Positions 256 to 63,766 of a stretch of DNA of 64,000 nucleotides are shown in pieces. Made by a program: the position numbers and the translations under genes. This DNA is from an uncultured virus (IMG/VR IMGVR_UViG_3300037092_000074) (Duplodnaviria; Heunggongvirae; Uroviricota; Caudoviricetes). Position 1 is the first letter of the stretch; each line of letters begins with the position of its first letter. Below the pieces are notes generated by a model. The model worked only from the letters and a program-made list of their open reading frames with translations, searched no databases and was not told where the DNA came from. The DNA lies in IMG/VR virus record IMGVR_UViG_3300037092_000074, one strand, 5' to 3'.

Positions 256-515
256 CTTGATTGACGTTACACCTAACGATCAAACGTGTCAAGTGCTGAT
301 TGTGGAAAAGTCCATTACCCGGACTCAGTATCCGAGGCGAAGATGTGACCGTTTGAAATCCACGCCCGGAAACCGTGCTGCCGGATGATTACTACCAGTC
401 TTGTCTTGCTCATTGTGTTCCTTTCTATGCGTATCGGCTTGAAACGATACCGCCGCATTAAACGGGTTCCTCCAAACCCGTCACTCTGCGATTGTCCATT
501 ATCCGGACAGGTTTA

Positions 516-1223
516 CTAGCGAAAGATAGCGCCCAAAGTGCCGTTGCCGCCTGCCGCCGCGATCTTCATTCCAACGGCCATTCCCTCGTTATAAGGCCGT
601 TCACTGGCGATAGTTGCCAGCGCGTCTAAACCGTCAGGCCGAAAAACAGGCCGCACACTGTACCCGTTTGCCGCGACAAAAATGCCTACGTGGTCGCACA
701 GTTCCAGACTCTTGCTGGCGACTTTGCAAAGTTGCGTACTCCGGTGCGATCTTACATCGGCAATCACTGAGTCATCGGAGGCTGAGAACGAGCGGCCATA
801 ATCTGTGCAAGAGTAAACGCAGTTCCAGCCCAACAACTCCTCGCCGTAGGTCAGGTTCCGGTTATGCCGATACACTTTGAACGGCAAGGCCAGATACATT
901 TCATCCGGCATGGTATCACATGAATTTTCAGGCACTTGCGCCGTACCGTTGCAAGCCGAGCAGGTTACGCTCTCTGTCTTACTGTAAGCAGTGCCAAAAC
1001 CGTAGCATTTTTTGCATCCACGAGCGCCGCCCTTTGGTCCGCGTCCTGTTCCATTGCAAACCGGGCAGGATACTGTTTTTGCAACTAATCCGGGGGTGCC
1101 GCGCCAAGTGCAAGAACATTCTTTCAAGCCCAAGACCACTTTGTTTCCAATCCGTTCCATACATCCTCCAATGCCGTGAGATAAAATGCCGGTATGAATG
1201 GCCAGTTTACCGGGACCGGCCAA
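516..1223 (-). CDS. DnaJ-type CxxCxGxG zinc-finger protein
   Basis: CPVCNGTG, CKKCYGFG and CSACNGT repeats; true start may be the internal Met near 1160. Confidence 0.65.
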   Translation of the reverse strand: MAGPGKLAIHTGILSHGIGGCMERIGNKVVLGLKECSCTWRGTPGLVAKTVSCPVCNGTGRGPKGGARGCKKCYGFGTAYSKTESVTCSACNGTAQVPENSCDTMPDEMYLALPFKVYRHNRNLTYGEELLGWNCVYSCTDYGRSFSASDDSVIADVRSHRSTQLCKVASKSLELCDHVGIFVAANGYSVRPVFRPDGLDALATIASERPYNEGMAVGMKIAAAGGNGTLGAIFR

Positions 1224-1232
1224 CCCGCTAGA

Positions 1233-1487
1233 TCAATCCGTGATAAAAACGTGGGATTCAGGCACGACCACGACCAGCACAGACTGTTGCCTGTTAGCCG
1301 TGCGAATTGTCCGAGCAATTGCCGTAACGGTAGAGGCCGGAACGTCGATTAGTTCGATGATCAGCGAATCTTCAAGCTGGCCCTTCCACGAGCCGATAGC
1401 TTCGATGATGGTGTACCCTGTGACGTGAGAATCGAGAATAGCGCGAACTGCCGCCGGGTTTACGTCTTCGGTGTAGATGCGATACAT
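1233..1487 (-). CDS. probable phage SAM lyase (T3 SAMase/Svi3-3-like, DUF3574-like fold)
   Basis: Pattern GYTIIEAIGSWKGQLEDSLIIE...AIARTIRTANRQQSVLVV resembles phage SAM lyases; ATG at 1487 preceded by AAGGA. Confidence 0.6.
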   Translation of the reverse strand: MYRIYTEDVNPAAVRAILDSHVTGYTIIEAIGSWKGQLEDSLIIELIDVPASTVTAIARTIRTANRQQSVLVVVVPESHVFITD

Positions 1488-1649
1488 GGGTTTTTCCTTT
1501 CGCCGTGAGATTGAATTCCTAGCAATCAACGTGTTACGGTAAACCCTGAGCCGTTCCAGGCCAACTTTGCCGCCCATCCGGGCCAGGGTAGATTGATAAT
1601 GCTGGTATGAATTCCCGCGATCACCGGAACGGGCAGTCCGGTTAATGGA

Positions 1650-1844
1650 CTAGCGTGTAACCAATCCGGCTTCGATCAGGTTCGCGGCCATTCTGCCGTA
1701 GCAGCCTTGCAACTGCCAGGCCAGGCCGGAATTCACAAGTGATTGAAACAGTTCAATCGTGCCGTCTTCATCCAGGTCGCCTTGCTCCCAGGCGATCATA
1801 GCGTTAAGCTGGTCCATGATAAACCCTTTCCTGTCCCTTGCCAT
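1650..1844 (-). CDS. conserved small phage protein
   Basis: IAWEQGDL..ELFQ.LV.SGLAWQLQG.YGRMA..LIEAG pattern typical of a small phage family; stop codon overlaps the 15-bp motif. Confidence 0.7.
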   Translation of the reverse strand: MARDRKGFIMDQLNAMIAWEQGDLDEDGTIELFQSLVNSGLAWQLQGCYGRMAANLIEAGLVTR

Positions 1845-1907
1845 GAGGTAGAAAACTCACTGGGACACTTTCCTGTATGCCGTGAATCGTCACGGCGCGG
1901 TGAAAGT

Positions 1908-2114
1908 CTAGCGATTGAGCCAGTATGCGTCTGTATCCTCAACTGAGAACAGCCAACCGTTTACGTTGACAAACTCCTGCCCGTCTGTATCCCAAGCCCG
2001 GAACGTATCATCAAAGTCTGTATCTGGCTTGACGAGCAAAAACAGGTCCATCGCTGCATTGGAAGCAACCACTTCCCGCGTGAATCCTTGTAATACCGCT
2101 GCATTGTCGCTCAT
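1908..2114 (-). CDS. hypothetical protein
   Basis: ATG with GGGGGA SD, acidic protein-like composition. Confidence 0.65.
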   Translation of the reverse strand: MSDNAAVLQGFTREVVASNAAMDLFLLVKPDTDFDDTFRAWDTDGQEFVNVNGWLFSVEDTDAYWLNR

Positions 2115-2441
2115 TGTTTTGTCCCCCTGTCCTGCTGCTCAACTGCTTACATATTCGAGACTGCGCCTATTCTCGAAACGTGTCAAGCGGTATTTTAGTC
2201 CCAGCCTGTGCAAAACTCAATTCCAGTCAATGAATACGCGGTGAATAATTATTTTATTCTTGTCTGAAAACAGTCCGGCTAATGGACTGTGCTACATATT
2301 CCCGGAGAATCCGCTCTATAGTGAATAGAGGCCAGCATACGCGCTAAGCACGCTCTGTGCTATCTGTCATTCGACGCCCATCTGCAATAGATGTACTGGC
2401 CTCCCACATTTCAGACCTAACAGGATACGCTGATCTAGCCT

Positions 2442-5776: not shown

Positions 5777-6141
5777 GATTTTGGTGGTAGAAAAGCTCTC
5801 CCTTTTCCTGGTATAGACGGAGTCGAAAGACACTAGGGAGCCGTCCTCGAAAGAAAGCCAGGTGGAGATTGCCGGTCTTAAAAACTCCCCGGCAAGTTTC
5901 GTCCAGTTAATGGACAGCAAGTAATACGTGACGTTGGGGTGCATCTGGCGCTTGCTTAATAGACCCAATGGGATCAGGCGGTTGAGTCCGAAGGGCTGTG
6001 GATAGGCCAGCCACAACTCTCTGACCATCTCCCCCGGGGAGGGAGTCCGGTAAAAATCCGGCGCGTTATGCTGAGGACTGCGGGACCTACGGCCTGTAGT
6101 TGAAACCTGGATCGGTTAAGCAGGGGATCAGTTAAGAATTT

Positions 6142-6218
6142 GCGGGCGTGATGCAACAGGAAGACATCTGAGGCTTAAACCCTCGGTTCTACCGGCTCGA
6201 ATCCGGTCGCCCGCACCA
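6142..6218 (+). tRNA. tRNA-Leu(TAA), short variable loop
   Basis: GCGGGCG/CGCCCGC acceptor, loop CT-TAA-AC, ACCA end. Confidence 0.85.
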
Positions 6219-6219
6219 C

Positions 6220-6295
6220 GGTCGAGTAGCTAAGACGGTAAAGCGACAGTCTGCAAAACTGTTAATCGTCGGTTCGATTCCGATCTCGACCTCCA
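6220..6295 (+). tRNA. tRNA-Cys(GCA)
   Basis: Cloverleaf, ACAGT-CTGCAAA-ACTGT, U73, CCA. Confidence 0.93.
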
Positions 6296-6307
6296 AGTTT
6301 AAGTTGT

Positions 6308-6390
6308 GCAGGTATGGCGTAATTGGCAGCCGCGCTGGTTTTAGAAACCAGTCTCTAGGGGTGGGGGTTCGACTCCCTCTACCTGCACCA
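6308..6390 (+). tRNA. tRNA-Leu(TAG)
   Basis: CTGGT-TTTAGAA-ACCAG, TTCGA, ACCA. Confidence 0.92.
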
Positions 6391-6396
6391 AGTTTT

Positions 6397-6479
6397 GCCG
6401 ATGTGGTGTAATTGGAAGCCACGCTAGATTCAAAACCTAGTCCTTCGGGGTAGGGGTTCGATCCCCCTCATCGGCACCA
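6397..6479 (+). tRNA. tRNA-Leu(CAA)
   Basis: Loop TT-CAA-AA, small variable arm, ACCA. Confidence 0.9.
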
Positions 6480-6608
6480 AATGTTGTGGGTGTCAACTCC
6501 CACTGATGACCATAAAGCAAAGTAGCCCTGCCGAAGACAAACTGTCGGTAAGTTGGTCAGAGATTGTCAACTCCTTCAACTCTGAAACAAGAGGGACGTA
6601 AGTTTCAC

Positions 6609-6694
6609 GGATCGTGGCCGGGACGGTAACGGAGCAGTTTGCTAAACTGTACAACCGAAAGGTTGAGCTTGTTCGACTCAAGCACGATCCGCCA
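6609..6694 (+). tRNA. tRNA-Ser(GCT)
   Basis: GCAGT-TTGCTAA-ACTGT, long variable arm, GCCA. Confidence 0.92.
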
Positions 6695-6738
6695 ATGTCA
6701 AGTTTTGTGCAAGGAAAAGTAGGTAGTTTTTCCTTAAT

Positions 6739-6824
6739 GGAAAGTAAACCCGGCGGGGCTGGGCACTGGCCGGAAACCAGTTGGGTCCTTCGGGACTGTG
6801 GATCGTGTTCACTGCTTTCCTCCA
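6739..6824 (+). tRNA. tRNA-Ser(GGA)-like, 8/4 fold
   Basis: 8-bp acceptor, 4-bp T stem, long D stem and variable arm, loop CC-GGA-AA, TCCA. Confidence 0.8.
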
Positions 6825-6825
6825 C

Positions 6826-6913
6826 GGACGGGTGGCAGAGTGCTTTATCGCGCTGGTCCCGAAAACCAGTACACCTTCGGGTGTCGTGAGTTGAAATCTC
6901 ACCCCGTCCGCCA
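6826..6913 (+). tRNA. tRNA-Ser(CGA)
   Basis: CTGGT-CCCGAAA-ACCAG, long variable arm, GCCA. Confidence 0.9.
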
Positions 6914-7050
6914 TGTTTGACGTGTGCCGCCGGTCGTCCGCTGTTCCTTATTCCCTTGTCAAAGGGTTGGAATATGATCCGGTTCCCCGAGCCCGGCTGG
7001 CCCTGACAAGCTCAGCAAGGTGTCGCGTAGAAGTCGGGGAGTTAAGTTTT

Positions 7051-7137
7051 GGAAAGCGCCGTCGATGGTGAGACAGCCGGTCCTGAAAACCGGGGCTCCC
7101 GCAAGGGATGAGGGATCGTTACCTTCGCTTTCCGCCA
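7051..7137 (+). tRNA. tRNA-Ser(TGA)
   Basis: CCGGT-CCTGAAA-ACCGG, long variable arm, GCCA. Confidence 0.88.
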
Positions 7138-7138
7138 C

Positions 7139-7222
7139 GCACGTAACGCGCTAAGGTAGCCAGGCTCTCTGTAAAAGAGCCCTCTTCGGGGATAGCAAGT
7201 TCGATTCTTGCTGCGTGCACCA
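7139..7222 (+). tRNA. tRNA-Tyr(GTA)
   Basis: GCTCT-CTGTAAA-AGAGC, variable arm, ACCA. Confidence 0.9.
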
Positions 7223-7303
7223 GTTTCGCACGGTAACATTTTCGATGTTATTGTGCAGTTTTCCACAAGTCCATTATCCGGACTGTGGTACAATGAAGTT
7301 TGA

Positions 7304-7379
7304 CGCCGGGTAGAGAAGCGGCCATCTCGCCATCCTCATAAGTTGGAGACCGGAGGTTCAAGTCCTCCCCTGGCAACCA
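7304..7379 (+). tRNA. tRNA-Met(CAT), initiator-like
   Basis: C1:A72 mismatch, loop CT-CAT-AA, AACCA end. Confidence 0.85.
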
Positions 7380-7383
7380 TTTT

Positions 7384-7459
7384 GCGACGGTAGCATAGCG
7401 GCAAATGTCCTTGATTGTCGATCAAGTTTACAGGGGTTCAAATCCCCTTCGTCGCGCCA
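7384..7459 (+). tRNA. tRNA-Asp(GTC)
   Basis: CTTGA-TTGTCGA-TCAAG, GCCA. Confidence 0.9.
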
Positions 7460-7464
7460 TTTAT

Positions 7465-7542
7465 GGGGTAGTTGGCAAGTTGGTTAAGCCACCACGTTCT
7501 CACCGTGGTTACGCCTCGGTTCGAACCCGAGCTACCCTACCA
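7465..7542 (+). tRNA. tRNA-Glu(CTC)
   Basis: CCACG-TTCTCAC-CGTGG, ACCA. Confidence 0.9.
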
Positions 7543-7546
7543 TTTT

Positions 7547-7627
7547 GTGGGTGTTCACATTGTTGGTGAATGTGCCCTGACTTTCAATCAGGTGATGTCG
7601 CCGGTTCGATTCCGGTCACCCACGCCA
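7547..7627 (+). tRNA. tRNA-Glu(TTC)
   Basis: CCTGA-CTTTCAA-TCAGG, GCCA. Confidence 0.9.
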
Positions 7628-7633
7628 AGTTGT

Positions 7634-7708
7634 TCCACGGTCGTATAATGGTATTATGCCTCGCTGTTAACGAGTAAGATGCGCGTTCGACTCGCGCCTG
7701 TGGAGCCA
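7634..7708 (+). tRNA. tRNA-Asn(GTT)
   Basis: TCC/GGA acceptor, loop CT-GTT-AA, GCCA. Confidence 0.9.
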
Positions 7709-7845
7709 AAATAGTCGTAACGGGCTGCGACTCTAAACACTGTGGCTAAACACCAACGGGTAAAACCTAGCAGCAAGACCTCAAAGAGAGTAGCGGGACT
7801 TACGCGCTTTGAGGCTGGGTTTTATTGAGGACCGCCAAATTTTAA

Positions 7846-7922
7846 TGGACCTTCGCCTAGCAGGTATGGCACTTCGCTCTGAACGAAGACTAAGACAGGT
7901 TCGAGACCTGTAGGTCCAGCCA
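7846..7922 (+). tRNA. tRNA-Gln(CTG)
   Basis: U1-A72, CTTCG-CTCTGAA-CGAAG, GCCA. Confidence 0.9.
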
Positions 7923-7927
7923 GTTTT

Positions 7928-8002
7928 GCCCGAGTCGTTCAACGGTAGGACCGGGGTCTTTGAAGCCCCAGACGCAGCGTTCAACTCGCTCCTCGGGTGC
8001 CA
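7928..8002 (+). tRNA. tRNA-Gln(TTG)
   Basis: GGGGT-CTTTGAA-GCCCC, GCCA. Confidence 0.85.
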
Positions 8003-56100: not shown

Positions 56101-56721
56101 GACCTCTGGGCAGACGTGTTCCACAACCTCTCCCCCATCCCGGCCCAAGCAATTGGTCAGGCTATTACGGGAACTGGACCTCAAGTTGGAAACGTGGGAC
56201 AAGTCTGGAAGGCAAGCGGTGGCACGGCTCAAACGTATGCCACGCCTGCGCAGAAGATGGCGGCAGAATTAGCAGCTAATCATAATGAAGATGGCCCCGT
56301 GGATCAGGCTCTAATGTCGCGCCACTCCCGGATAATGAGCTTGGAAGATCAGGTAAGATCGGGAGAGGTCTCGTGGCCGGACTTGGTGAAACTAGCGTAT
56401 AATACGGACCAACTCCGCGAAACGGAATTGAAGAAGATTCAGGCTAACCTAACCAAGACAAAAGGTATGGATTCCTCGATGGCTTCGTTGTATACGAGGG
56501 CCTCGCGGCTGCCCGCCAAGGAATACATGGATTTGTTTGATACCATGAATCCGAGGGAGAAAACGGCGCTCATTCCCCTGACTCAGGCGGTGATGAAGAA
56601 GTATACAACCAAGGCCATGAAGGACATGACGCCCTCTGAAAGAGCTAAGGACCCAACGCTTCAACGAATACTGAATATGATGCACCCCTCGGGACAACCA
56701 CCCCCATCACAAGAACAATAA
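47182..56721 (+). CDS. giant (3179 aa) polyvalent internal virion/ejection protein
   Basis: Modules: HExxH (EELHH); HhH-glycosylase-like (WYE..AALSP..GPKVSSF..NL..VT.D.WM..QAAIW); ART-like (VVYHGT..GFYFT..GYDGV..F.PNQIKS); polyvalent-type YTLPGGENYRELLL..EELQSDW. Confidence 0.85.
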   Translation: MPDYSIYGSGGVSDGRGPSSGNSSLGLETAVSPSPSDSSASKYSIYGSPSPEASPDNGQSSVAPSAPQHTYQDESQPWYKRAWDYANTPITSSLFGLPEERQGAGGFERGVEHIAAGLTSPLSLALGAATFGTGGWIAGAGETALKESGEFTAAEIADAIKGSKAALQAAKSVPAIEPVIGKALAEAGPELPNLVERAKEVLGPIDRSAEFGEPEVQKALLASGKFSEPELADLTKASQTIRNAKEGFAPIDDAVRASGADVANWKRAQALLSKNGLDETSDLLGGHLLERGAFQIIRKAAPDIPVAGAVRAAKTATEVMQAGFTYQQLEMAAQMSPRFFDALKEGDYDHAMEYGTEAVLSGGMGVLGASHALHTAGELFKPLLGSEETPRLSDRWLAVERANKERETAHAVAEQHGINIQSEAMKRLGHENPNPVFGDKPEIKAQKQADLTDLALWTETHQGDAGKAKAIDSALWKAEGRAPEESPLSGLPQVGTPLASNEVPLQAGTQAVGSTSSGEVRVGADGRPVVWISPADWDIFEAITGQPGTGVNYSPAEADRLLSRFNPESSIGQLISQARKIAGPTAVLKAPGSNPDFTIRVAKEELHHTWQRELATNGEIENHLNRPQWRRLYDIIPPGQTAELDRLGYNQKPIVRVAETAAKFRAGIVPPGVSDEEVLGFLKEYRKEVESKHGKDAWEDPGNINNVAAQHVKDIYDKRRAGQVSANGGLANNAANQGLVGSVGQGGRGAPSLHQEGAVGVRGKTPEGLASRVRKLDEEPLSFASPNVHNLGGIDDAQQRLESRPQKIAEKLSGDLASSLKIKASVRPALGHWEGGAENSVLGRFAPGTDPDAVEYHNALLAKAGYQNAGAGFIPGEGKDVLFQFRVSDGAASTKQIAEVLEQHGIPGDTIEPIPGGNLVHIVGANGEFRPQVSEIAARLGAGKVGEIYGRKFENGDYTDRDAAQSAFDRRLTELEVKHPEWRGVRQAFESRPDHVELSRLVRETKSPFVEGVHGSRTPGISTLTPETDVKGPQKGAQEARAKAFPKDFVKRTYFREEGSHGEPFYEHMPYQYKARMNAENLYDYVDDPDHLLQAAYKEAADRKISGQPGAIGTIYERLMRDSGYEGYYHTGAREIGAFKDTQVEAKLQAQASGRPLSGQLAFGLASGEKPAEWEDIKPHLTPEEVQKHDTPEKQNLLTAAFNSMPNHEEWTAAIRAGRAGSLWYERSTRAFDALIDSGIPWLWKADKEKFLNFTAALSPVQPVQANLRMALNLWAKWDKAGRPQDVTWKDGKVSSKNASLYRILAGRGDSQGVDLPARMGNAIRALQGEPLSGPKVSSFTKNLGKDASRVTNDTWMAVFGAHDPNRINKPAIYDSMSAKVREAAKAEGVEPRQAQAAIWCFIKSLAELSGWGNDRWIPPQEIIKQGLLTPELVAQHSADFADMLKTDPEIRGVIKKLGGDLNALDTKLETYVPRKPITGEAQEPATHLLNAADRLEASRRDSRVASHLARKQGPSLFDTEFGPDNGLFSRERMPDFIKQAEERGDKDDPLIAGWKKILRGHELSPEEKQEVTNQASKDLSAFIYQPHPNDLDTLWTKQQAKYLSEHPEEAAFRKSVIEKFNPGALAKYGVSPNKPLASRESPDNGLFSKERENTPEFKSFFGDWTKPDKDSVSKVVDQTGQPKVVYHGTKGNFTEFRVDPNNAHSPYGFYFTDSPEYAGKYTANRTGDNIMPAYVRITKPASWEEFKQAIRADRTNGVKNLQAKGYDGVVAKQSEEWGGIPIPNDPNVYVAFSPNQIKSAIGNRGTFDLTNPNMLFSKERENQAPQWYLKSNQLVDSRMQGPMPADTVRKMLENNGVKPDELKYTGLSDFLREKGKEPVRPEEVKDYLAANNLQIQEVTKGQNLSRIDQISQSLYGRPYSSLEETPREVVDRAASRWKGDGEEEQRTKFGTYTLPGGENYRELLLALPDSRETQQLVNRTDQQFRSSHWDEPNVVGHVRFNDRTGPNGEKLLHLEELQSDWHQKGRTLGYRTELLPEEEQRLKHAIEERNLAAEGRANSRRDPDKSAFDEATSRMERLDAEISELNKKKNGPVPDAPFKKTWPELLFKRMTRYASEHGYNGISWTPGEEQAARYDLSKTVDHVEYFPELQRLNATKDGYHVLSESVPKEKLPDYIGKEAARKLLESPLTKKKLEEDFDAHHVLSGTDLKVGGEGMKGFYDKMVPEMANKLGKQFGAKVGETKIEAGTKESRIPIPEEEGGGTQPGRRVADTRTVPYFPITDSMRESVLSQGQPLFSKESPENGQLPPNIDDMIRNNVWKDQPEAYRKQVHDSLGRIASGAVPANVLQAAKYLGPEDARNYEIGSANDILHNHIDDHNHRVWQDANPEGKVISAEARTGKFATNVTAARHRVFDSLVTGLLKSPKQMQFDPVSAVARGRVELIKAAANRQFIRSMRDGFARASDGRPALVLSGSGNVVAGENGEDPKTFISPDRVQKINIAQPAIDEMKKSGDFDRFLADGTIKNLTPRVHPDNIRTSIARMEDQAQRKDAQYNTAPEGPTRPENGQPFAANPAPGEPYNILRQQIAELKHMQESGDYSGLREFNDKMKPVYAWDPQDYITLDHNAMRGWNFVTNDSAGHGILVDAEIKAHPEFAQYLKNRLGLEPSSIANNPIGKAALGVGSAAKHVLLSMSPFHTVQIALRGVLAGVNPFTLHGPDILNGAKIDPADPHSETKIKAMVRQGYTTGTDYKAAQAHSEGLSTGGEALRRIPGVGPLLANSLNAYNDFLFHRYIPAIKATAAEHLFDQYREAHPEWSTDRVAKASALHANNSFGGINWKAMGRSATTQDWGRLMLLAPDWLESEMRSGARLFNKDEGGVSRKQIAIMTMSLWGIARVLNTLATGNPHLEAPFGLATKNKEGKEIIYSIRTLPTDLLHASTDPVGFIKGRLSPTIHTGQELLTQRDTFGRKLGPEDLWADVFHNLSPIPAQAIGQAITGTGPQVGNVGQVWKASGGTAQTYATPAQKMAAELAANHNEDGPVDQALMSRHSRIMSLEDQVRSGEVSWPDLVKLAYNTDQLRETELKKIQANLTKTKGMDSSMASLYTRASRLPAKEYMDLFDTMNPREKTALIPLTQAVMKKYTTKAMKDMTPSERAKDPTLQRILNMMHPSGQPPPSQEQ

Positions 56722-56764: not shown

Positions 56765-56786
56765 GCGTTCTGTCCATTATCCGGAC

Positions 56787-57170
56787 TTATTCTACTTCAA
56801 CACCGCACATAAGCTCCCGGAGATGCTTCTCCTTGACTACGGGCAGCAGCATCGGTATTTTCTCTAGCAAACAGGGTTCGAGGGGTCTACCTACGGCCAG
56901 ATCAAGTTCAATTCTGTTTCTCAAGTAGTTACACTCAGAGCAGGCCCCTTTTAGATTCTCCAAGTCATCTGTTCCTCCTCGGCAGCGGGGGATGATGTGG
57001 TCCACCGTAAAACCGGACCAGGTACATTCTTTTCCGCAAAAGAAACAGACTCCACGTTGCTCAACAAACAAAGCCTTCCTTTCCTGAGACAAGTCAGGCC
57101 GAGGAGAAGACCCTGTGTATCTTCGATGTTTTCCAAAGAGAAAATGAATCGGAATCATAACCCTGTCCAT
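56787..57170 (-). CDS. HNH endonuclease
   Basis: CFFCG...TVDHIIPRCRGGTDDLENL..AC.ECN; flanked on both sides by the motif. Confidence 0.88.
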   Translation of the reverse strand: MDRVMIPIHFLFGKHRRYTGSSPRPDLSQERKALFVEQRGVCFFCGKECTWSGFTVDHIIPRCRGGTDDLENLKGACSECNYLRNRIELDLAVGRPLEPCLLEKIPMLLPVVKEKHLRELMCGVEVE

Positions 57171-57182
57171 TATCCGGACGAT

Positions 57183-57392
57183 TTAATCTGCGTCCTCTTC
57201 TACAGTAACACCAATACTTCCCCTGGAAATGGTGACAAAGAAGACCCCGGGCTTTAGAAGTTCCGTATTCTCTGCTTGAGCCGCCTGCACCGCCCTTCGG
57301 ATTTCCGCCGCCACTAAATCAATCTCCTCCTGAGTTTCTGGAAGAGGAAAGTTCAAAACACAACTAACCATGATCGTAACCTTTCTGTCCAT
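57183..57392 (-). CDS. hypothetical protein
   Basis: Small ORF bracketed by motif copies. Confidence 0.55.
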   Translation of the reverse strand: MDRKVTIMVSCVLNFPLPETQEEIDLVAAEIRRAVQAAQAENTELLKPGVFFVTISRGSIGVTVEEDAD

Positions 57393-57400
57393 TATCCGGA

Positions 57401-57592
57401 CTAAGGTAGAACTTCGATTGCGGGAGTTTCAATAACGATCTTCCCCATAACTCCCTCTTGCCATTCGATGAAGGTTCGGGTTGACCCATCTTCGGCAACG
57501 ACTAGGTTCCACCGAGGAAAGGCTTCGGAAGATCGAACGCTCAAACCCCCGGTCCAGGGTCCCACTTCGATTGGTCCTCTAACAACTAACAT
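57401..57592 (-). CDS. hypothetical protein
   Basis: Likely start MLVVRG after GAGG; stop overlaps a motif copy. Confidence 0.5.
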   Translation of the reverse strand: MLVVRGPIEVGPWTGGLSVRSSEAFPRWNLVVAEDGSTRTFIEWQEGVMGKIVIETPAIEVLP

Positions 57593-57899
57593 TTGGAACC
57601 TCGATTTCGAGGGGGAAGACACCGAGGCAGGAATTTCCAATCTGATTTTTGACATACTCCTCCGCAGCGGACTTTAAGGCCCAAAGTCGTCCTCGATCTA
57701 CACACTCTTCCGTAAACTTTCCGGCTTTCAGAACAACCACCCACTTGGTTACCTTCTTGGTGATCAACTTCTTGCGGCGCTCTCCCATCAGGTCGTTGAC
57801 GGTTCTTCCACAAACTTCGTGCAGGGGGAAAGGAGCGGTTCCGGCTTCCACCCCGGCTCGATAATAATCCTCGGGGCCCCAAATGTTTACTTCTGCCAT
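57579..57899 (-). CDS. hypothetical protein
   Basis: GAGGAG SD, 106 aa. Confidence 0.6.
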   Translation of the reverse strand: MAEVNIWGPEDYYRAGVEAGTAPFPLHEVCGRTVNDLMGERRKKLITKKVTKWVVVLKAGKFTEECVDRGRLWALKSAAEEYVKNQIGNSCLGVFPLEIEVPNVSC

Positions 57900-57986
57900 G
57901 TTTCATCTCCTCATTACTTGTTGTTAAGTGTTGATGTTTTGGGACACCGCTCAGGAACATTATTCTGATCCTAAGCCGGTATTGCG

Positions 57987-58334
57987 TTAAGATTCCTGAA
58001 CGGTAACTTCCGCCGCATCCAGTTCCCGCTCCAAAACAGCCAAAGCTCTCCAAGCCATGCGGGCGGTGGCCCTGATTCCGTTCTCGTCCACTGTCCCTCT
58101 CTCAATGAAATGACGGATAAGGGCATCCGCGTCGTCCACGGACCTATCCCGGTCCCAATGTAACGGAGTTCCTGGAGGGAAATGCTGCCTGTTCCCCGCC
58201 AAAGACACACGGGAAATCTCGGCCATAGACTTTGGGAAGTAGTCGAGGACTCCTGTGGCTATTGGAGTTTCCTTCCGCTCTTTTGCTCCGCTCGGCAGTA
58301 AGCTCAAAACCGTCCTCCGTTCCTGGTCACCCAT
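57987..58334 (-). CDS. DUF5664-like dATP/dGTP diphosphohydrolase domain protein
   Basis: ERK..P...GVLDYFP....I.RVS..GN..H, W.R..S.D..DAL.RH, AWRALA.LE. Confidence 0.75.
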   Translation of the reverse strand: MGDQERRTVLSLLPSGAKERKETPIATGVLDYFPKSMAEISRVSLAGNRQHFPPGTPLHWDRDRSVDDADALIRHFIERGTVDENGIRATARMAWRALAVLERELDAAEVTVQES

Positions 58335-58690
58335 TGTTCCACTTCTCCCCAGTTATCTTCAACTCTGAGGGCTTTGTCATCGAGGTAGAGATCAGCTAGG
58401 GGTTTACCCTTTGCTCCGTCGTCGATCTCGTCATACGGCACACCTTCTTTGTCCAGGAACTCAATCATTTCCCGGACCAGCGGGCGCTCCAAAGTGGGAC
58501 AGTCCCAACTCCCAAAGATGTCTTCCTGCCACCTACAGGTACGGCAGGACCAGACAATGATACGGAACCCCATTCGGCGGAAAGCCTGTAACGCAGATCG
58601 GGCCCCGGGTTTGAGCGCACCGATCTTGGGGAACTCGTGGTCCACTATGGTGCCGTCAAAATCCACACAAATTGTTTTCTGGTAGGCCAC
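58304..58690 (-). CDS. HAD-superfamily phosphatase-like protein
   Basis: ICVDFDGTIV, IIVWSCR, KP.AD.Y.DDKA. Confidence 0.85.
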   Translation of the reverse strand: MAYQKTICVDFDGTIVDHEFPKIGALKPGARSALQAFRRMGFRIIVWSCRTCRWQEDIFGSWDCPTLERPLVREMIEFLDKEGVPYDEIDDGAKGKPLADLYLDDKALRVEDNWGEVEQWVTRNGGRF

Positions 58691-58902
58691 TACTGTCTTA
58701 CCGCCTCTCGTTCCTTCTCCCCAGTTTCAAGAGCATTGATGAATTCTCGGTCAACCCATGCCCGAAGTTCCTCCGTAAGCTCCGGGTTCTTTGTGACGAT
58801 AAAATCCGCATACGTCTTCATCGCGGCTCTTGAAGCTCGGGCGTAGTCATCCGTCCCCTCGGGCTTCAGCACGAAATATTTCATCTTCAAACCGTCTGAC
58901 AT
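58690..58902 (-). CDS. hypothetical protein
   Basis: GGAGGA SD before MSDGLKMKYFVLKP. Confidence 0.65.
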   Translation of the reverse strand: MSDGLKMKYFVLKPEGTDDYARASRAAMKTYADFIVTKNPELTEELRAWVDREFINALETGEKEREAVRQ

Positions 58903-59162
58903 GGTTCCTCCGTTGCTCGGTTTTCCGGCCACAGTTTGTGAGCATCGCCCCGGGCGTAGTCCGCCGGGCAAGGAAGTTCTTTGTATTCCGGCTCCCAACC
59001 AGTAAAGGCTATCCCCCAAGCGAGCCGAAGAGCCTGCCACTCTTTGTTCGCGTCACAATACCGACACTCTCCTGGGCCGTGGAGAATTCTTTGATCGCAG
59101 TGCGGAAAGGGACGGCTGATGAATTCAATCATGTTCATCTGCGGTTTGGTTTTCTTAAACAT
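58887..59162 (-). CDS. hypothetical protein
   Basis: GGAGGA SD; PHCD..ILH..GEC.YCD. Confidence 0.65.
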   Translation of the reverse strand: MFKKTKPQMNMIEFISRPFPHCDQRILHGPGECRYCDANKEWQALRLAWGIAFTGWEPEYKELPCPADYARGDAHKLWPENRATEEPCQTV

Positions 59163-59186
59163 GGTTCCTCCTGTCCATTATCCGGA

Positions 59187-60029
59187 CTAAACAATTTCTT
59201 CGAGAGCGTGAGCGAAGTAGAAAGGGACTTTGAATCCCGCTGCGTGTTTATGGCCGCCACCCCCATATAGCTTTGCAATTTCGGACACGTCCAAGCCGTC
59301 TTCGTCCGACCGGAGGGAGAAGATCGCACTTGCTCCGTCGAGGTAGAACGTTGAGGCGAATGGTTCGCCTTTGGCTAAGATGTTCCCGGCCTCGGTGCAA
59401 AGCGTGTACGGAAGGTTCGCTGTCGGAACCAGATGTCCGCCCAGGTAGATGGTGAACTTGTTTTGAAGAAGCTCGTCGATGTCCTTGGTTTGCTTGCGAA
59501 GAATTGCTTCCCCTTGAAGCTCGCACTCTTTCCGAGTTTCCACGCAGTCCAAGCCTTCGGCCACAGAAGTCCAGGTAAAAAAATCGTAGGGAAGACTAAA
59601 GATGTAAGAGGAAAGAGCTTTGGTTTCAGGAAAAATAAACTTCCACAAATCCCTGTCCTCAACATAATCAATCAACATGGGTCGGTCTTTGACCGTTGCC
59701 TCTGGGTGGAAATAATTCCAAGCAAGATGCGCCCCAGAGCTTTCCATGTCGAATTTCACCGACACGTTCTCTGGAAGATCGACCAGGTCCGCTTCCGCGC
59801 TCTTGTGGTGATCCAGGATGTGGATAAACGAGGCGGTCTTCGCCATCTCTAAAATCACCGGGTGCTTGTAGGAGAAGTCGAGAAAGTACACATCCCGGCC
59901 TGTTACATCCGGAGGATTCTCTTGGTATTTTCCGGGATAGAACTCCCAGTCAGGGTGGAGTTTCCACACGACCCAAGCAGCGGTAAAACCGTCGGCGCAG
60001 TTACCGTGGTAGATTACTAGAGGTTTCAT
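59187..60029 (-). CDS. DHH/DHHA1 family phosphoesterase
   Basis: YH.NCADGF.AA, LDFSY, LDHH, EDRDLW, FSLRS, GGGGHKHAAGF. Confidence 0.92.
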   Translation of the reverse strand: MKPLVIYHGNCADGFTAAWVVWKLHPDWEFYPGKYQENPPDVTGRDVYFLDFSYKHPVILEMAKTASFIHILDHHKSAEADLVDLPENVSVKFDMESSGAHLAWNYFHPEATVKDRPMLIDYVEDRDLWKFIFPETKALSSYIFSLPYDFFTWTSVAEGLDCVETRKECELQGEAILRKQTKDIDELLQNKFTIYLGGHLVPTANLPYTLCTEAGNILAKGEPFASTFYLDGASAIFSLRSDEDGLDVSEIAKLYGGGGHKHAAGFKVPFYFAHALEEIV

Positions 60030-60055
60030 CAGTTCCTTTCCGTCCATTATCCGGA

Positions 60056-61537
60056 CTAAACTCGCGTGTAGATCGTGCTGGTCACACCCTTGCTCCGGTC
60101 CACAACATAGCTCGCCAAGGCCGCCTCAGATAGGTACGCATTCCGTTCATGGAATCGGTCGCGTCCCCGAAGAGAAGGCATCTGATAGTGCGTACCCCCC
60201 ACTAACTCGCGGACAACCTCGTGGTGCAGGTGCCCGGTGAAGAAAGCCCGCCACATAGTATTGGCCCACAACCCGGGAGCTTCAAGAGCCATCGTCGCCA
60301 TGTACTGTGCTGGCTTCAGGGCCCCATCCCCATGAGCAAACCCAAGCAGCGTGTCTCCGTATGAGGTGTAGGCCCGGGACTTTGCGCTGAACTCGATCTC
60401 TACGTCGGAGTCATTCCTGTACCAAGCCTGAAGGAACTTGAGCAAGGTGAGGGTCAGCATTCTGTCGTGATTTCCGGGTACGGACAGTATCTTGACTTGA
60501 GACGCACCACGAAGGGTATCAATATCCCGGACAGCCAGGTCAAAACCCTCGGCTATGATCTGGGCGACTGTCCCGTCCATCTCCTGCGGAGTTCCTTTAG
60601 TCGTGGTCCCGAAGTCAGTATCTACCGTCACGTAGTCATGCCCAATGACGTAAAAGAACTTCTCCGGCCTCCCCTTGTCCGATACCTCTTCGAGCATCTG
60701 AGTTCTGGCATAAACTAAACGTTCCTCGGCTACGGCCCGGCTAAACTCTTCGCCTGTCTCCAAGACCCAGCCGCTGCCGCCATAGTGAAGTTCTCCCGCG
60801 CTGGTCACGACCGCAAACGGATTTCTCGCCAGCTTCAGGTTGAGGCGGGGCGGCTCATAAGAAGGAATCAAAGTGGACAGGTGATCTTGCAGAGGAAGCA
60901 TGAAGTTCTGCTCCAAGTTGTTCCACTTTTCCGCGTCCACCTTGATTTCATGCCAGCGTTTCTTCTCGAAACCTTCCCAAATAGCCTGGCGTCTCTGTTG
61001 AAAAGCGTCGTCCGCGAGGTCTTCGACTTCCCGAGACATCACTTCTTCCCGAGTAAAAGGCTCGGCCTCGTGAGTCCACCCGTGTACCGCCTTGAGTTCC
61101 TGGAACTGATCTCGGGGGATAGCAAACCGGCGGCAGATTTCATTGACCGTAGAGGGTTTTCCATCCCAGTCGGAATACGCTTTCTTCATCGACCGGAATT
61201 TTACTCCGTTGATAACTAAGGGCTTAGGTCGGCACTTCAAGAAGGTAATGTAGGTGTCCGAGTCCCCGTTGTATACGTATTTGTCTTTCTGAACCCACAA
61301 CCCCGTAAGCTCTTCGTCCGGAGGATCAATCGCAGGCACCACAGGAATCTCCGACCCATCTGCCCGAATATCGGACACAATCTGCTCGTCAAGATACTGC
61401 TTGAGAATTCTCGAAACAGTCTTGTGATGCAAGCCCACGGCGTCGGCAATCTTCCTTGCAGACATTCCTGGGAAATTGTCGTGGTATTCGTGGACAGCCG
61501 AACGGAGGGCTTGGGGTACTGGAGTAGTCTTAGGCAT
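60056..61537 (-). CDS. calcineurin-like metallophosphoesterase with N-terminal HTH
   Basis: ELHYG, GHDY, PGNHD, FAHGD, TGHLHH. Confidence 0.82.
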   Translation of the reverse strand: MPKTTPVPQALRSAVHEYHDNFPGMSARKIADAVGLHHKTVSRILKQYLDEQIVSDIRADGSEIPVVPAIDPPDEELTGLWVQKDKYVYNGDSDTYITFLKCRPKPLVINGVKFRSMKKAYSDWDGKPSTVNEICRRFAIPRDQFQELKAVHGWTHEAEPFTREEVMSREVEDLADDAFQQRRQAIWEGFEKKRWHEIKVDAEKWNNLEQNFMLPLQDHLSTLIPSYEPPRLNLKLARNPFAVVTSAGELHYGGSGWVLETGEEFSRAVAEERLVYARTQMLEEVSDKGRPEKFFYVIGHDYVTVDTDFGTTTKGTPQEMDGTVAQIIAEGFDLAVRDIDTLRGASQVKILSVPGNHDRMLTLTLLKFLQAWYRNDSDVEIEFSAKSRAYTSYGDTLLGFAHGDGALKPAQYMATMALEAPGLWANTMWRAFFTGHLHHEVVRELVGGTHYQMPSLRGRDRFHERNAYLSEAALASYVVDRSKGVTSTIYTRV

Positions 61538-61895
61538 TCGAAATCTCCTCTTTCATCTCATCCAAAACGTATTGAGCCAAATCTGCGGCTCCATCGTTCA
61601 GACCCAATTGGTAAACAATCTCATCCTCGGGAAGAACCTTTTCCGCCCGAACTCGCCCCGCTATCTTCTGCAAGGTTTCTACGATCAAATCTGGAACCCG
61701 CATTTTCTCCTCCAGGATTTCGTCTTCTTCCTCGATGGTTTCCCGCTCAATCAAGTATAACACACCACCCAGGATTAAGGCAAGGGAAAAGGCCAGCCAC
61801 GACCTCTGGAGAACTGCTGTCACGGCGGAAGCCCCGCAAGCCCCAGCCAGCACGTCCACGATGATATGGCGCTCTACTCGGGTTTTGTGTGTCAT
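61530..61895 (-). CDS. membrane protein
   Basis: Two TM segments, AAGGA SD. Confidence 0.6.
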   Translation of the reverse strand: MTHKTRVERHIIVDVLAGACGASAVTAVLQRSWLAFSLALILGGVLYLIERETIEEEDEILEEKMRVPDLIVETLQKIAGRVRAEKVLPEDEIVYQLGLNDGAADLAQYVLDEMKEEISNA

Positions 61896-62040
61896 GTCGT
61901 TTCCTTGTGCTCTTCACATCTTGGGTCTCGTGTGGAGCGGTCAGTCCCGCCGAGCTTGTTTGGCTTAAAGTTCCAGTAGTCAGCAGACTTTTGGCAAACC
62001 GAGCATTTGCGGGGCGTTGCAAAATCAGGAATTCGTTCGG

Positions 62041-62598
62041 TCATTGTGTTCCTTTCTGAAGGAGGGCCTTCCCTTTACATTTCGGGCAGGAATAGCCGTC
62101 TCTGTGCATCCACCCTTCCATCAATCCGGTTCCGTCGCACATATCGCAATACTCCTGTCCATTATCCGGACTTCGGTGCTCGCGGAGATAATCGGCTGCC
62201 AGTTCGAGGATCGCCGAGTCGTCCCGAAAGAGAATCATAGCGCGATTGCATCGGTGGCACAATAAACCTCGGACAGAGGCCCGCTTCAGTTCTTCCTTTA
62301 CTTTGGTCAGCGCCTCAGACTTGGTTCTGTATTCAAGGGCTTCGTACTCCGCGCCGTTGTATTCGGCATAAGCGTTCCAGATTTTGCCGCATTTATTGGT
62401 TTTGATCTTGATCTTTTTCCACTTGTGGTCGTGGTCGATATTCAGCCGTCTGGTCCCCGGACCCTCGCCACAAACGGCACATCCACCCGCCTGCTCGACG
62501 AACTGCTCGTTATACCAGTCGAGGCCGACTCCGTAGGTTTTCTTGAGTCGCAGGTCGGTAGCGCGGTCGAGTTGTGCTTGGGTCTTTGGTTTGGTCAT
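62041..62598 (-). CDS. endonuclease VII-family nuclease
   Basis: KTYG...Y.....Q.G.CAVC, IDHDH, VRGLLCHRCN, F.D....L..A..YL. Confidence 0.85.
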   Translation of the reverse strand: MTKPKTQAQLDRATDLRLKKTYGVGLDWYNEQFVEQAGGCAVCGEGPGTRRLNIDHDHKWKKIKIKTNKCGKIWNAYAEYNGAEYEALEYRTKSEALTKVKEELKRASVRGLLCHRCNRAMILFRDDSAILELAADYLREHRSPDNGQEYCDMCDGTGLMEGWMHRDGYSCPKCKGKALLQKGTQ

Positions 62599-62759
62599 AG
62601 GGAACCCCTACTGCATTTCCATTGCGCCGGAGCCGGTGTGCTCCAGGTTTTAACCATAGGTTCCCCGCATTTTGGGCAAACGGGGGGCTCATCCATTACC
62701 CGGACAAGCTTCTCCAGCGTATGCTCGCAACTCGGACAGCGAAACGTATAGATCGGCAT
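62595..62759 (-). CDS. FmdB-family zinc-ribbon protein
   Basis: MPIYTFRCPSC...CPKCG; AGGAG SD. Confidence 0.8.
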   Translation of the reverse strand: MPIYTFRCPSCEHTLEKLVRVMDEPPVCPKCGEPMVKTWSTPAPAQWKCSRGSL

Positions 62760-62871
62760 TTCTCTCCTATCCGAAAAAGGCCCACAGATACAAGCCAAGG
62801 AACATGAGGGCCGCCCCACGGAGGAGCCCGGCCAGGAATTCAAACCACTGAAATTTCTCGATCATACTTCC

Positions 62872-63369
62872 TCAGCGTAGGAACAACAAATTCCCGATGG
62901 TTGTTGTTATTGTGAAGGCGGACAGCGACCCGGGGGCGAGTTTGTCCTTGGGGACACACCACAAAGCCCCGCCAGTCTTATCTGAAACTTCGCCCGCTAA
63001 AACGGGGCCCATTCGAGACAAAAGCTGTTGGAACTGCGGGTCGCGCGGGTCCGGGAAGTCCCCCGGGTTTTCTGTCAGCCACTTGGTTGCTTCGTCGTAC
63101 ACGTCAATTCCGGACTCCAGAGACCTGTTTAAGAGGACTAGGCAGACGCAGAGCATGACGTGTGAGGGCTCTCCTTGCGCAGCCCGCCAGCAAGCTGTTG
63201 CTATGATCGAGTCTCGGTAGTCGGAAGTAGTAAGCACTAATACCCCTTTACAAAGTACCAGATCACATACAGCCATCCGAGAAGCCCGTGGAGGATCATC
63301 CACCAAAAGGCGTGCCACTTTGTCCAGGAGAGCACGGTTGCAATTATTGTGCCCAAAACCCCAATCCAA
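62872..63369 (-). CDS. SleB/cell-wall-hydrolase-like protein, probably degenerate
   Basis: W..AQGE....V..V..NR, D.TGGA.W, IGN..F; catalytic Glu apparently absent; true start likely downstream of 63369. Confidence 0.5.
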   Translation of the reverse strand: MDWGFGHNNCNRALLDKVARLLVDDPPRASRMAVCDLVLCKGVLVLTTSDYRDSIIATACWRAAQGEPSHVMLCVCLVLLNRSLESGIDVYDEATKWLTENPGDFPDPRDPQFQQLLSRMGPVLAGEVSDKTGGALWCVPKDKLAPGSLSAFTITTTIGNLLFLR

Positions 63370-63388
63370 GTCCCTTCGTTCGTGTTAC

Positions 63389-63766
63389 TCATTTTTCTTC
63401 TCCTTGTCCATTATCCGGACTTCCGTCCGGCTGTTCAACTGCGGTTTCGCTCCGGGGAGGCTCTTCCATCCACGATCCTGACCTTGGTGGAACCGCCCAG
63501 GTACTAAGAGCTTCTTCCGCTGATTTCACGGGAAGCTCGATCACTTGTTTCTGCTTTGCTTCGTACCCAGGGGGAAGAAAGTATTCAGCCGCGTGTAGCT
63601 GACAACAGAAAGCCTTCTGAACCCCGTTGTGGGTAATTAGAACCAGGTACAAGGTTTCTTCCGGAGCCTGCTCCCGGCCCGCCCCTACTTCGGTTTCATT
63701 CCAAGAAAGCACGGATGCGCACCCCTTGAGATCGCACGAAACTGTTATTGTTTTGGATACTCCCAC
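63389..63766 (-). CDS. hypothetical protein
   Basis: GAGGAG SD, GTG start; CD..GC and FCC..H. Confidence 0.6.
   Translation of the reverse strand: MGVSKTITVSCDLKGCASVLSWNETEVGAGREQAPEETLYLVLITHNGVQKAFCCQLHAAEYFLPPGYEAKQKQVIELPVKSAEEALSTWAVPPRSGSWMEEPPRSETAVEQPDGSPDNGQGEEK

Follow-up and report, generated by a model that had tools for sequence, protein, structure and literature searches.

A Genome-wide 15-bp Signal with Inverted GTCC/GGAC Arms in a Clade of Uncultured Peat Phages

Short palindromes that are dispersed over a DNA molecule, bound by dimers, and used to silence or organize that DNA include the KorB OB sites of RK2 and the sites of ParB-parS, MatP-matS, SlmA, and Noc. Among phages, a few clusters of mycobacteriophages are known to carry short repeats spread over the genome, and of these only the stoperators are understood mechanistically. 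Cluster O mycobacteriophages carry a 17-bp dyad, TGTTCGG-NNN-CCGAACA, in 34 copies on a genome of ~70 kb; the sections of the published account drawn on here describe an A/T-rich center, intergenic, 5′-proximal, and in-gene copies of which a few lie near promoters, absence of the repeat from the host, and pairs of copies on either side of some insertions, and the authors propose a dimeric regulator (PMC4351075). Cluster A stoperators, according to the sections of their description used here, are more than 20 short sites found genome-wide at promoters and in short intergenic spaces; they are 13-mers without dyad symmetry, bound by a two-domain monomer in a strikingly consistent orientation that is necessary for function, and those of L5 (gp71 type) illustrate how a protein sitting on DNA can have a polar effect (PMC9283540). 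Here we consider a 15-bp signal, GTCCRGNTAATGGAC, whose GTCC and GGAC arms form an inverted repeat and which recurs throughout a 64,000-nucleotide stretch of DNA from an uncultured virus (IMG/VR record IMGVR_UViG_3300037092_000074). This whole stretch is referred to below as the window, and its relatives, which are IMG/VR metagenomic contigs of varying completeness, as G002 and so on.

The window contains 34 exact matches to GTCCRGNTAATGGAC, whereas 100 dinucleotide-preserving shuffles have a mean and a maximum of 0. When up to two mismatches are allowed there are 40 matches, compared with 0.79 expected and a shuffle maximum of 5. A first-pass annotation, made by a model from the letters alone, had counted about 41 copies, about 20 of them exact; this agrees with the 40 near copies if "exact" denotes the commonest 15-mer, GTCCGGATAATGGAC, which makes up 20 of the 34. 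The density is about one motif per 2 kb, with a spacing of 1.7–2.8 kb across the genomes tested. That no gap exceeds about 4 kb is correct when degenerate copies are included (~4.0 kb, from 43332 to 47342) and incorrect for exact copies only, where one gap measures 5278 bp. Copies are spaced more evenly than chance would place them in the window (coefficient of variation 0.69, P = 0.015) and in G002 (coefficient of variation 0.64), but not in G010, G011, or G007. Alignment of 40–45 nucleotides on each side of all copies showed no further conserved element, apart from a weak preference by which G is rare at −1 and C is rare at +1.

The signal is a property of a family of genomes. An exact scan of IMG/VR returned 119 stretches, most of them clustered on a small number of related contigs with many on each, and the relatives hold 20–60 copies each. 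Forward and reverse counts are 27 and 27 in G002, 22 and 19 in G003, 19 and 21 in G004, 15 and 16 in G005, 13 and 15 in G010, and 13 and 13 in G007, and the reversed control pattern gives 0 in every one. In a set of six genomes there are 295 GTCC-N7-GGAC sites where ~9 are expected. Across the 295, positions 5 and 6 are purines (99 and 98%), position 7 is A in 71%, position 8 is T in 85% (A in 12%), and positions 9, 10, and 11 are A, A, and T in 95, 89, and 92%. By k-mer counts, the preferred center switches in concert by lineage: it is GGA in the window, RGN in G002, AGA in G010 and G007, GAA in G011, AAA in L313, and AGA together with a T8-to-A change in L283 and L308. The arms can switch as well. 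In G009 both have changed complementarily, from GTCC..GGAC to TTCC..GGAA (TTCCAGATAATGGAA), with 31 copies of the core, some half-converted. In the distant relatives G012 and G013, whose TerL is ~41–42% identical, the outer arms are again GTCC and GGAC and the whole site is a perfect 6-3-6 palindrome, GTCCGG-WWW-CCGGAC: G012 has 19 GTCC-N7-GGAC sites (control 1), mostly GTCCGGAAACCGGAC (GTCCGG-AAA-CCGGAC), and G013 has 13 (control 2), mostly GTCCGGAATCCGGAC (GTCCGG-AAT-CCGGAC). G014–G016, at 38–46% TerL identity, show no sites beyond chance. Judged from these comparisons, the two arms matter as a symmetric pair.

We rejected a host-genome repeat or uptake signal as the source of the motif. In 596 Gb of bacterial genomes, for which ~1100 chance hits are estimated, only single scattered hits occur among the matches listed (80 of at least 120), in line with chance, and none of the listed genomes has the motif as a repeat; the first-pass annotation had proposed scanning the host. 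In the literature searches made, the motif strings matched only unrelated primers, and the word "motif" is absent from the paper on the Tunturi phage.

Positions are conserved along with sequence, as had been suggested should be checked. Alignments across the window's sites include 22 that are longer than 100 bp and 66–93% identical; the 12 fixed bases are intact in 20 of these, one of the two exceptions being an alignment gap where the scan lists an intact copy, and the center takes the form of the other lineage. Antisense copies (13682, 33730, and 37387) are conserved in position too. Inside genes, the encoded residues track the DNA variant, reading PDNG, PNNG, or PGNG in a giant protein and VRIMD or VQIMD in a 237-residue core protein. 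Selection acts on the nucleic acid and not on the peptide, as the first-pass annotation had proposed, and at dozens of sites per genome a nucleic-acid signal of 15 bp can take precedence over the protein sequence. This conservation is independent of orientation. Sites that oppose transcription carry the dominant center of their lineage as often as sites that run along it (31 of 63 vs 72 of 130, P = 0.44), so whatever reads the site appears to recognize it either way round. Nine of 41 groups of orthologous sites are of mixed orientation (4 of 24 in-gene groups and 5 of 17 at junctions), and in flipped groups only the center is inverted while the arms stay unchanged, as in SPDNGQ of the endonuclease VII of the window versus SPLSGQ in G010, G007, and G002. 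The presence of a site is conserved more than its orientation. Where an orthologue has no in-gene copy, residues align in 155 comparisons and a gap of at least four residues is found in 32; a copy is present in both genes in another 248, and 231 are unalignable. Because absences mostly align residue for residue, copies arise mainly by substitution rather than insertion, and a mobile 15-bp insertion was rejected on the same ground.

Placement was assessed with gene calls from our own self-trained caller, which are crude, such that figures near gene ends are approximate. In the window, 26 of 35 GTCC-N3-TAATGGAC sites lie at gene or tRNA junctions, in agreement with the earlier statement that most copies are intergenic or overlap start or stop codons; the other 9 lie at least 12 nucleotides inside a coding sequence, fewer than the at least 13 claimed before, a difference that probably stems from copies overlapping gene ends. 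As had been noted, in-gene copies occur in different frames and on different strands, encoding PDNG, VRIMD, PLSG, and SIIWT. Over five genomes, 124 of 200 sites are at junctions though 80–89% of the DNA is called coding, and the in-gene copies (38% of sites) comprise 39 sense and 37 antisense. About one-fifth of all gene junctions hold a copy. Among 78 co-oriented junction copies, the first G completes a TAG stop codon in 10, a stop lies 1–7 nucleotides upstream in 12, the end of the motif is 10–17 nucleotides ahead of a start codon in 24, and the motif's own ATG is called as the start in 10. Oppositely pointing junction copies are placed alike, 17 of 25 lying 4–18 nucleotides ahead of a start. 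With respect to local transcription, 24 sites of the window run along it, 8 oppose it, and 3 are ambiguous; in G011, 31 run along it and 7 oppose it. In the right-hand minus block (56772–63420), all 8 exact copies and the one-mismatch copy at 62691 are on the minus strand, as reported previously, although the copy at 56772 was scored as ambiguous by one script and as opposing its nearest gene by another, both based on our own gene calls.

We give about an even chance to the reading that a roughly symmetric DNA-binding protein, encoded by the phage, recognizes the motif on double-stranded DNA, where it would act as an operator, roadblock, or organizer. A sequence-specific protein encoded by the phage would bind the 15-bp site in duplex form, and the arms are probably read as a pseudo-symmetric pair because GTCC and GGAC lie one helical turn apart. 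Sites would be kept wherever the genome tolerates them, preferentially in the narrow space that separates a stop codon from the ribosome-binding site after it, but also inside genes, in tRNA spacers, and over promoters. Genome-wide, the site could serve as an operator combined with a stoperator-like transcriptional roadblock or insulator, or it could serve a KorB/ParB- or MatP-like organizer. Binding by a protein, its encoding by the phage, and an effect of binding are what we infer here; the analogies to stoperators and to parS/matS that the first-pass annotation drew are reasonable. We favor a DNA site because opposing copies are conserved with the dominant center, in-gene copies show no strand preference, orthologous sites flip orientation, and there is no covariation within genomes.

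Several observations weigh against this DNA-site reading. The conserved center, RRNWAAT, is strongly asymmetric: 165 of 295 sites have G at position 5, whereas just 14 of 295 have the mirror base C at position 11, which would not be expected for a simple homodimer with equal half-sites. A purely symmetric site also predicts no orientation bias, yet over the five genomes 130 of 200 sites run along local transcription, 63 oppose it, and 7 are ambiguous, and among junction copies 88 run along both neighbors and 26 oppose both. The orientation with transcription described in the first-pass annotation is present, as the counts of 24 and 8 in the window also indicate, but at 130 versus 63 it is much weaker than that described for L5 stoperators. 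Any final model will have to account for both the asymmetric center and the orientation bias. A dimer and a helix are equally compatible with the symmetric change of both arms: the pairs G-C, G·T, and A-T at positions 5 and 11 and the change of G1-C15 to T1-A15 would be equally compatible with hairpin pairing. Intergenic regions are so short that sites may lie close to promoters and start codons by coincidence. Finally, in Pfam, PHROGs, and NCBIfam searches of most G011 proteins, the only sequence-specific regulator found was a sigma factor of the extracytoplasmic function (ECF) type.

The search for a binder covered several further candidates. No repressor combining a helix-turn-helix with a stoperator domain was hit in the G011 scans, outside which several short proteins and four locus-boundary genes lie, and no homologues of ParB, KorB, or MatP were detected. 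The 237-residue core protein gave only sub-threshold ParB/DUF1016-like leads, its model has a predicted local distance difference test score of 60.7 with no fold match, and it is also present in the motif-poor G014. Leads alone suggest that a 209-residue protein is a replication organizer or a loader of the helicase. Neither the 237- nor the 209-residue protein matched anything in profile searches against solved structures. The earlier claim that the window holds no obvious cognate binder is right in that none was identified, although the end of the ECF-type sigma gene does lie there and phylogenetic profiling opposes the sigma factor as binder.

Host-type promoters in the family are very uniform, with the form (TTGACA)-N17-TGTGGTAYAATG and an extended −10; they occur at 5044, 7286, 9117, and 25452 (+) in the window, one of them directly after the head-protein gene, and in 16 copies in G011. 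At a minority of these promoters a motif copy covers the −35 region or spacer. The copy at 7269–7283 directly abuts the extended −10 TGTGGTACAAT at 7286 (+), bearing out the earlier placement of this copy in the −35 region of a −10 element. At an orthologous promoter downstream of the gene for the 209-residue core protein, a copy lies upstream of the −10, over the −35 or spacer, in G011, G002, and G008; in G006, G009, and G010 it covers the start region instead, and in G007 it is decayed. A protein bound there would interfere with initiation, but this placement is suggestive only, because intergenic space is short.

The main, though less probable, alternative is that the motif functions as RNA, forming a hairpin with a 5-bp GUCCR/UGGAC stem and a pentaloop, RNUAA or GAAAA, that is bound or cut by a phage protein and punctuates long polycistronic transcripts. 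Such a hairpin could act in processive antitermination, in processing or stabilization, or in control of a start codon 10–17 nucleotides downstream. It would explain why 130 of 193 classified sites run along transcription, with 88 versus 26 at junctions and 31 versus 7 in G011, and why 24 of 78 co-oriented junction copies end 10–17 nucleotides ahead of a start codon. A purine at position 5 (292 of 295) faces T at position 11 (271 of 295), permitting G·U or A-U pairs; pairs 1-15 and 5-11 vary between lineages in a manner compatible with pairing; the loop is asymmetric and conserved; and a twister ribozyme follows one copy by 4 nucleotides. The predicted stability, −3.4 to −5.5 kcal/mol, is modest. 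Against the hairpin, antisense copies are conserved in position and follow the center of their lineage, in-gene copies are evenly divided (39 sense, 37 antisense), and 9 of 41 orthologous groups flip. Nor do substitutions behave as pairing would require. Within genomes there is no covariation, A being about as frequent as G at position 5 when position 11 is C; transitions in the inner arm keep a wobble pair in 6 cases and break pairing in 4, which is not significant; and G1 to A (23 cases) is commoner than C15 to T (14 cases).

The boxB element of λ and P22 and the Csy4 (Cas6f) repeat are likewise hairpins of 15 nucleotides, in which a pentaloop closes a stem of 5 bp; a genome has one or two boxB elements, each beside boxA, and boxB needs the arginine-rich N protein. 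Set against a GNRA-like pentaloop, the loop is GAAAA in the L283/L308 lineage and GAUAA in the window, these two forms being spread over several lineages, but it is AAUAA in G011 and L313, which in G011 means a loop without the leading G. No boxA-like element lies within 45 nucleotides, no conserved family of arginine-rich, N-like small proteins was found, and antisense copies persist. We consider it doubtful that sense copies are boxB- or Csy4-like hairpins that would either make polymerase resistant to termination or direct the cutting of 40–60-kb transcripts at about every third junction, alongside ribozymes.

It is unlikely that the motif marks a strand-specific DNA event, namely a site-specific nick, possibly an entry point for a sliding clamp, or a site related to priming or packaging. 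The nick-and-clamp enhancer of T4 and the site-specific nicks of T5-like genomes are precedents. The spacing of 1.7–2.8 kb, an orientation that follows two divergent gene blocks, several HNH and endonuclease VII genes, and the presence of clamp, clamp loader, and sigma factor in one block are consistent with such an event, but orientation is only 67% consistent, spacing is regular in just two of five genomes, and the places where contigs break in the two DNA runs are not those of motif copies, although all four runs examined consist of contigs, which do not show molecule ends or nicks as raw reads could. Loose ends at 28193–28199 and 33729–33750, which carry flanks of the copies at 50645, 62157, 48638, and 63406, are read as short local matches to those copies rather than as recombinants.

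Quite improbable as well is a single-element promoter, in which a −10-like GATAAT between GTCC and GGAC is used by host polymerase with the phage ECF-type sigma factor or another phage modification, in a manner comparable to T4 late promoters. The family does encode this factor (TIGR02937, 50.9 bits over a cutoff of 42.9), which matches solved ECF sigma factors across both domains; the last ~76 codons of its gene, encoding C-terminal region 4, lie at 63770–64000 (−) and run off the end of the window, and the gene adjoins the sliding-clamp and clamp-loader genes. The motif contains GATAAT, and most junction copies point toward the next gene. However, ECF sigma factors use a bipartite −35/−10 promoter with elements ~16–17 bp apart, and no second element was found within 45 nucleotides of the motif, nor any enriched pair of a 5-mer and a 4-mer across a gap upstream of genes. 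Position 7, which would serve as the −11 base, varies most of all (A in 208 of 295), many copies lie only 10–17 nucleotides ahead of a start codon, one-third point the wrong way, and a compensatory change of both arms is unexpected. Co-occurrence is also broken: G012 (record 90% complete) has 19 sites and no detectable sigma factor, whereas G014 (66% complete) has the sigma factor with only 1 site against a control of 6. The gene directly after that of the sigma factor, at 63389–63766 (−), encodes a conserved protein of 100–137 residues that is rich in Cys (C-x4-C ... CCxxH) and by its position could be an anti-sigma partner rather than the binder.

Known tyrosine-recombinase core sites are longer than the arms of the motif, and a cassette-boundary site was rejected since motifs are not enriched at non-conserved gene adjacencies. 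A selfish or recombinational origin, in which copies spread by insertion or gene conversion or act as cassette crossover points with no dedicated binder, is very improbable. In its favor, an HNH gene and a DHH gene are each flanked by two direct copies, a tRNA-Thr and an HNH gene lie between AGG copies, templated conversion is implied where the center is inverted and the arms stay fixed, the four genomes whose called genes include a tyrosine recombinase conserve it, and Cluster O phages show deletions between their repeats in the sections of that account used here (PMC4351075). Against it, the motif is equally frequent at conserved and at non-conserved adjacencies (48 of 222 vs 109 of 539; odds ratio 1.09, P = 0.69), absences of in-gene copies align 155 times against 32 gaps, and deep conservation with lineage-wide variant switches needs selection.

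The individual copies illustrate these placements. At the left end, GTCCGGGTAATGGAC lies at a junction (310–324 (−)), and the copy at 494–508 (−) is 7 nucleotides past a gene end and 4 ahead of a type-P5 twister ribozyme. A GGT-centered junction copy at 1636–1650 (+) opposes the local genes, and a GGC-centered copy at 2273–2287 (+) marks the divergence point of the two gene blocks. An AGT copy (5901–5915 (+)) precedes the tRNA array; within the array are the copy at 7269–7283 (−), between tRNA-Tyr and tRNA-Met, and the only two AGG copies, at 8179–8193 (+) between tRNAs and at 9301–9315 (+), which bracket a tRNA-Thr plus an HNH gene. The copy at 12063–12077 (+), 13 nucleotides past the last tRNA, is kept in G002 and G011. 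An antisense copy in a region encoding a signal peptide (13682–13696 (−), LSIIWT) is kept in G002 and G010, and the copy at 16750–16764 (−) opposes transcription at a gene end. Around the portal gene, one copy (20161–20175 (+)) is 3 nucleotides past a stop codon upstream of it, and another (22335–22349 (+)) is 4 nucleotides past the portal stop and 11 ahead of the next start. The junction copy at 23195–23209 (+) has GGA (G002) and GAA (G011) orthologues in long alignments, and an AGA orthologue in G007 that rests on a short motif-centered match only. Further junction copies lie at 26402–26416 (+), lost at the aligned place in G002; at 26997–27011 (+), with AGA; and at 28202–28216 (+), 7 nucleotides past a stop. 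A GAA-centered copy, with one mismatch to the consensus of the first-pass annotation, is 13 nucleotides ahead of a start (30153–30167 (+)), and an AGA copy overlaps a gene end (31124–31138 (+)). Two copies kept in both G002 and G011 are antisense in the signal-peptide region of a 966-residue protein (33730–33744 (−), PLSG) and intergenic against transcription (37387–37401 (−)). Junction copies at 38512–38526 (+) and 42064–42078 (+) lie 16 and 36 nucleotides ahead of a start, the former also 15 past a stop, and a degenerate copy, GTCCGGGAAATGGAC, has one mismatch (43332–43346 (−)).

A gene for a 3179-residue polyvalent protein (47182–56721 (+)) spans a series of copies. Those in sense are at 47342–47356 (+) (SPDNGQ; GGG at the same place in G002 and GAA in G011), 51749–51763 (+) (GPDNG; kept in G002 and G011), and 52106–52120 (+) (SPDNG); antisense copies are at 48638–48652 (−) (SPLSG) and 50645–50659 (−) (RPLSG). 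Degenerate copies are at 49498–49512 (+), with two mismatches; 54080–54094 (+), GTCCGGAAAACGGAC, encoding SPENG, whose orthologues are intact in G002, G006, and G008; and 54866–54880 (+), GTCCGGAAAATGGAC, which equals the dominant form in the L283/L308 lineage. The protein has a DUF7178 domain at residues 1217–1404 and an ART-PolyVal domain at residues 1678–1808 and in part resembles proteins from Dolichospermum phage Dfl-JY45, from F116, and from crAss-like phages. In the leftward block that follows, an HNH gene (56787–57170 (−)) lies between direct copies at its 3′ end (56772–56786 (−), adjoining a convergent terminator-like hairpin) and its 5′ end (57165–57179 (−)), and a DHH phosphoesterase gene (59187–60029 (−)) likewise lies between two direct copies. 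The first G of the junction copy at 57387–57401 (−) is the last base of a TAG stop; the copy at 59173–59187 (−) overlaps the TAG stop of the DHH gene 10 nucleotides ahead of the next start; and that at 60042–60056 (−), kept in G010 and G007, overlaps the TAG stop of an exonuclease gene. The endonuclease VII gene has a sense copy in its linker (62157–62171 (−), SPDNGQ), and this is the copy reversed in G010, G007, and G002. The last two are the one-mismatch copy GTCCGGGTAATGGAT (62691–62705 (−)) and a copy 17 nucleotides before a gene end, just upstream of the next ribosome-binding site (63406–63420 (−)).

The window, at 52% G+C, encodes a terminase, portal, and major head protein, with a leftward block of nucleic-acid enzymes at 56.7–64 kb, and it belongs to a tRNA-rich phage of peat metagenomes with a genome of ~110 kb, a size taken from CheckV-style completeness (G011, 110,256 bp at 100%; G002, 96,970 bp at 89%). 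The hosts of the clade, uncultured peat phages of ~95–110 kb, are probably Acidobacteriota. The window is 64–91% identical to its relatives in the longest alignable stretches (means of 69–76%). A DNA-level search found no deposited phage that matches it; at the protein level, Tunturiibacter phage Tunturi_3, which infects Acidobacteriota and is the closest relative in culture, is the only deposited phage matching the portal protein, at 31% identity, and the motif is absent from Tunturi_3. Peat metagenome runs from several studies hold near-identical DNA, with at least 94% of sampled words present in five runs that are not marked as its possible source, two of which gave long, nearly identical pieces that align to the window. 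Contigs from RNA libraries overlap parts of the window, most deeply at the head-protein gene; this does not in itself prove transcription, and parts not covered by the RNA runs carry no information.

ARAGORN predicts 28 tRNA genes at 6142–12049 (+), an array broken by HNH and DUF559 endonuclease genes (8338–9099 and 10008–10874), and two further tRNA-like Rfam matches lie at 9755–9827 and 11389–11460. A Ro60/TROVE-domain protein with a vWA domain adjoins the array in G011 (27400–28752 (+)) and G008 (61835–63160 (−)). The twister-P5 ribozyme of the window (433–490 (−)), just after a gene end, scores 41.9 bits against a gathering score of 37.6. In the complete relative G011, ribozymes similar to that of hepatitis delta virus (HDV) and of the twister-P5 and hammerhead II types stand among small early genes, all on the minus strand (self-cleaving ribozymes at L132 19884–19955 and L133 1352–1406 and 1633–1701), and the HDV-like match contains a motif copy (G011 19898–19912). 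The major head protein gene is whole in the window (24417–25400) and is found as 2–4 separated pieces in several of G002, G007, G010, G011, and G009, with another conserved open reading frame between the pieces (G011 46773–47717), which suggests introns or inserted endonuclease genes. The replication module includes an integrase-like tyrosine recombinase (G002 11765–12877, G009 37995–39131, G010 88479–89603, and G011 15181–16161) that is kept in all four genomes covering the region and has an antisense motif copy inside it in G002 and G010. A weak match to the N-terminal domain of MazZ-like dATP/dGTP diphosphohydrolases, at 57987–58334 (−) and at G011 88161–88529 (−), makes a modified base in the phage DNA a question.

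Overall, a phenomenon so far familiar from mycobacteriophages is found in an unrelated, uncultured peat-phage clade. The natural variation of this clade, with at least five center variants, one paired arm switch, palindromic older forms, and orientation flips, amounts to a code of specificities with which the binder could be sought and with which silencing, insulation, organization, or processing of a whole genome could be tested. Compared with the dispersed sites of KorB, ParB, MatP, SlmA, and Noc, the element has the same tens of short palindromic sites in and between genes, but the KorB, ParB, and MatP systems are cellular or plasmid-borne, and here they are represented by faint leads only, in the 237-residue core protein. 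With stoperators it shares density, placement at junctions, an orientation bias, and site variants that differ among related phages. It differs from them in having a 15-bp inverted-repeat site whose arms co-vary as a pair and which becomes a 6-3-6 palindrome in distant relatives, in that one-third of sites are reversed and 38% lie in genes, and in that no repressor homologue was found. With the Cluster O repeat it shares more than 30 copies, invariant inverted arms, an A/T-rich center, intergenic and in-gene positions, a few copies near promoters, segments flanked by two copies, and no repeat in host genomes. The sequence and the phage group differ, the center in the lineage of the window is 5–7 nucleotides long, strongly asymmetric, and conserved, and the bias of 130 versus 63 along transcription contrasts with the little orientation preference described in the sections of the Cluster O account used here. 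The palindromes of G012 and G013, on the other hand, share the 6/7-3-6/7 layout of the Cluster O dyad, with an inner CGG-AAA-CCG. By analogy, then, the element fits most closely with the Cluster O dyad repeat, above all in its G012 and G013 forms, and would be a new instance of such a repeat in an unrelated phage clade.

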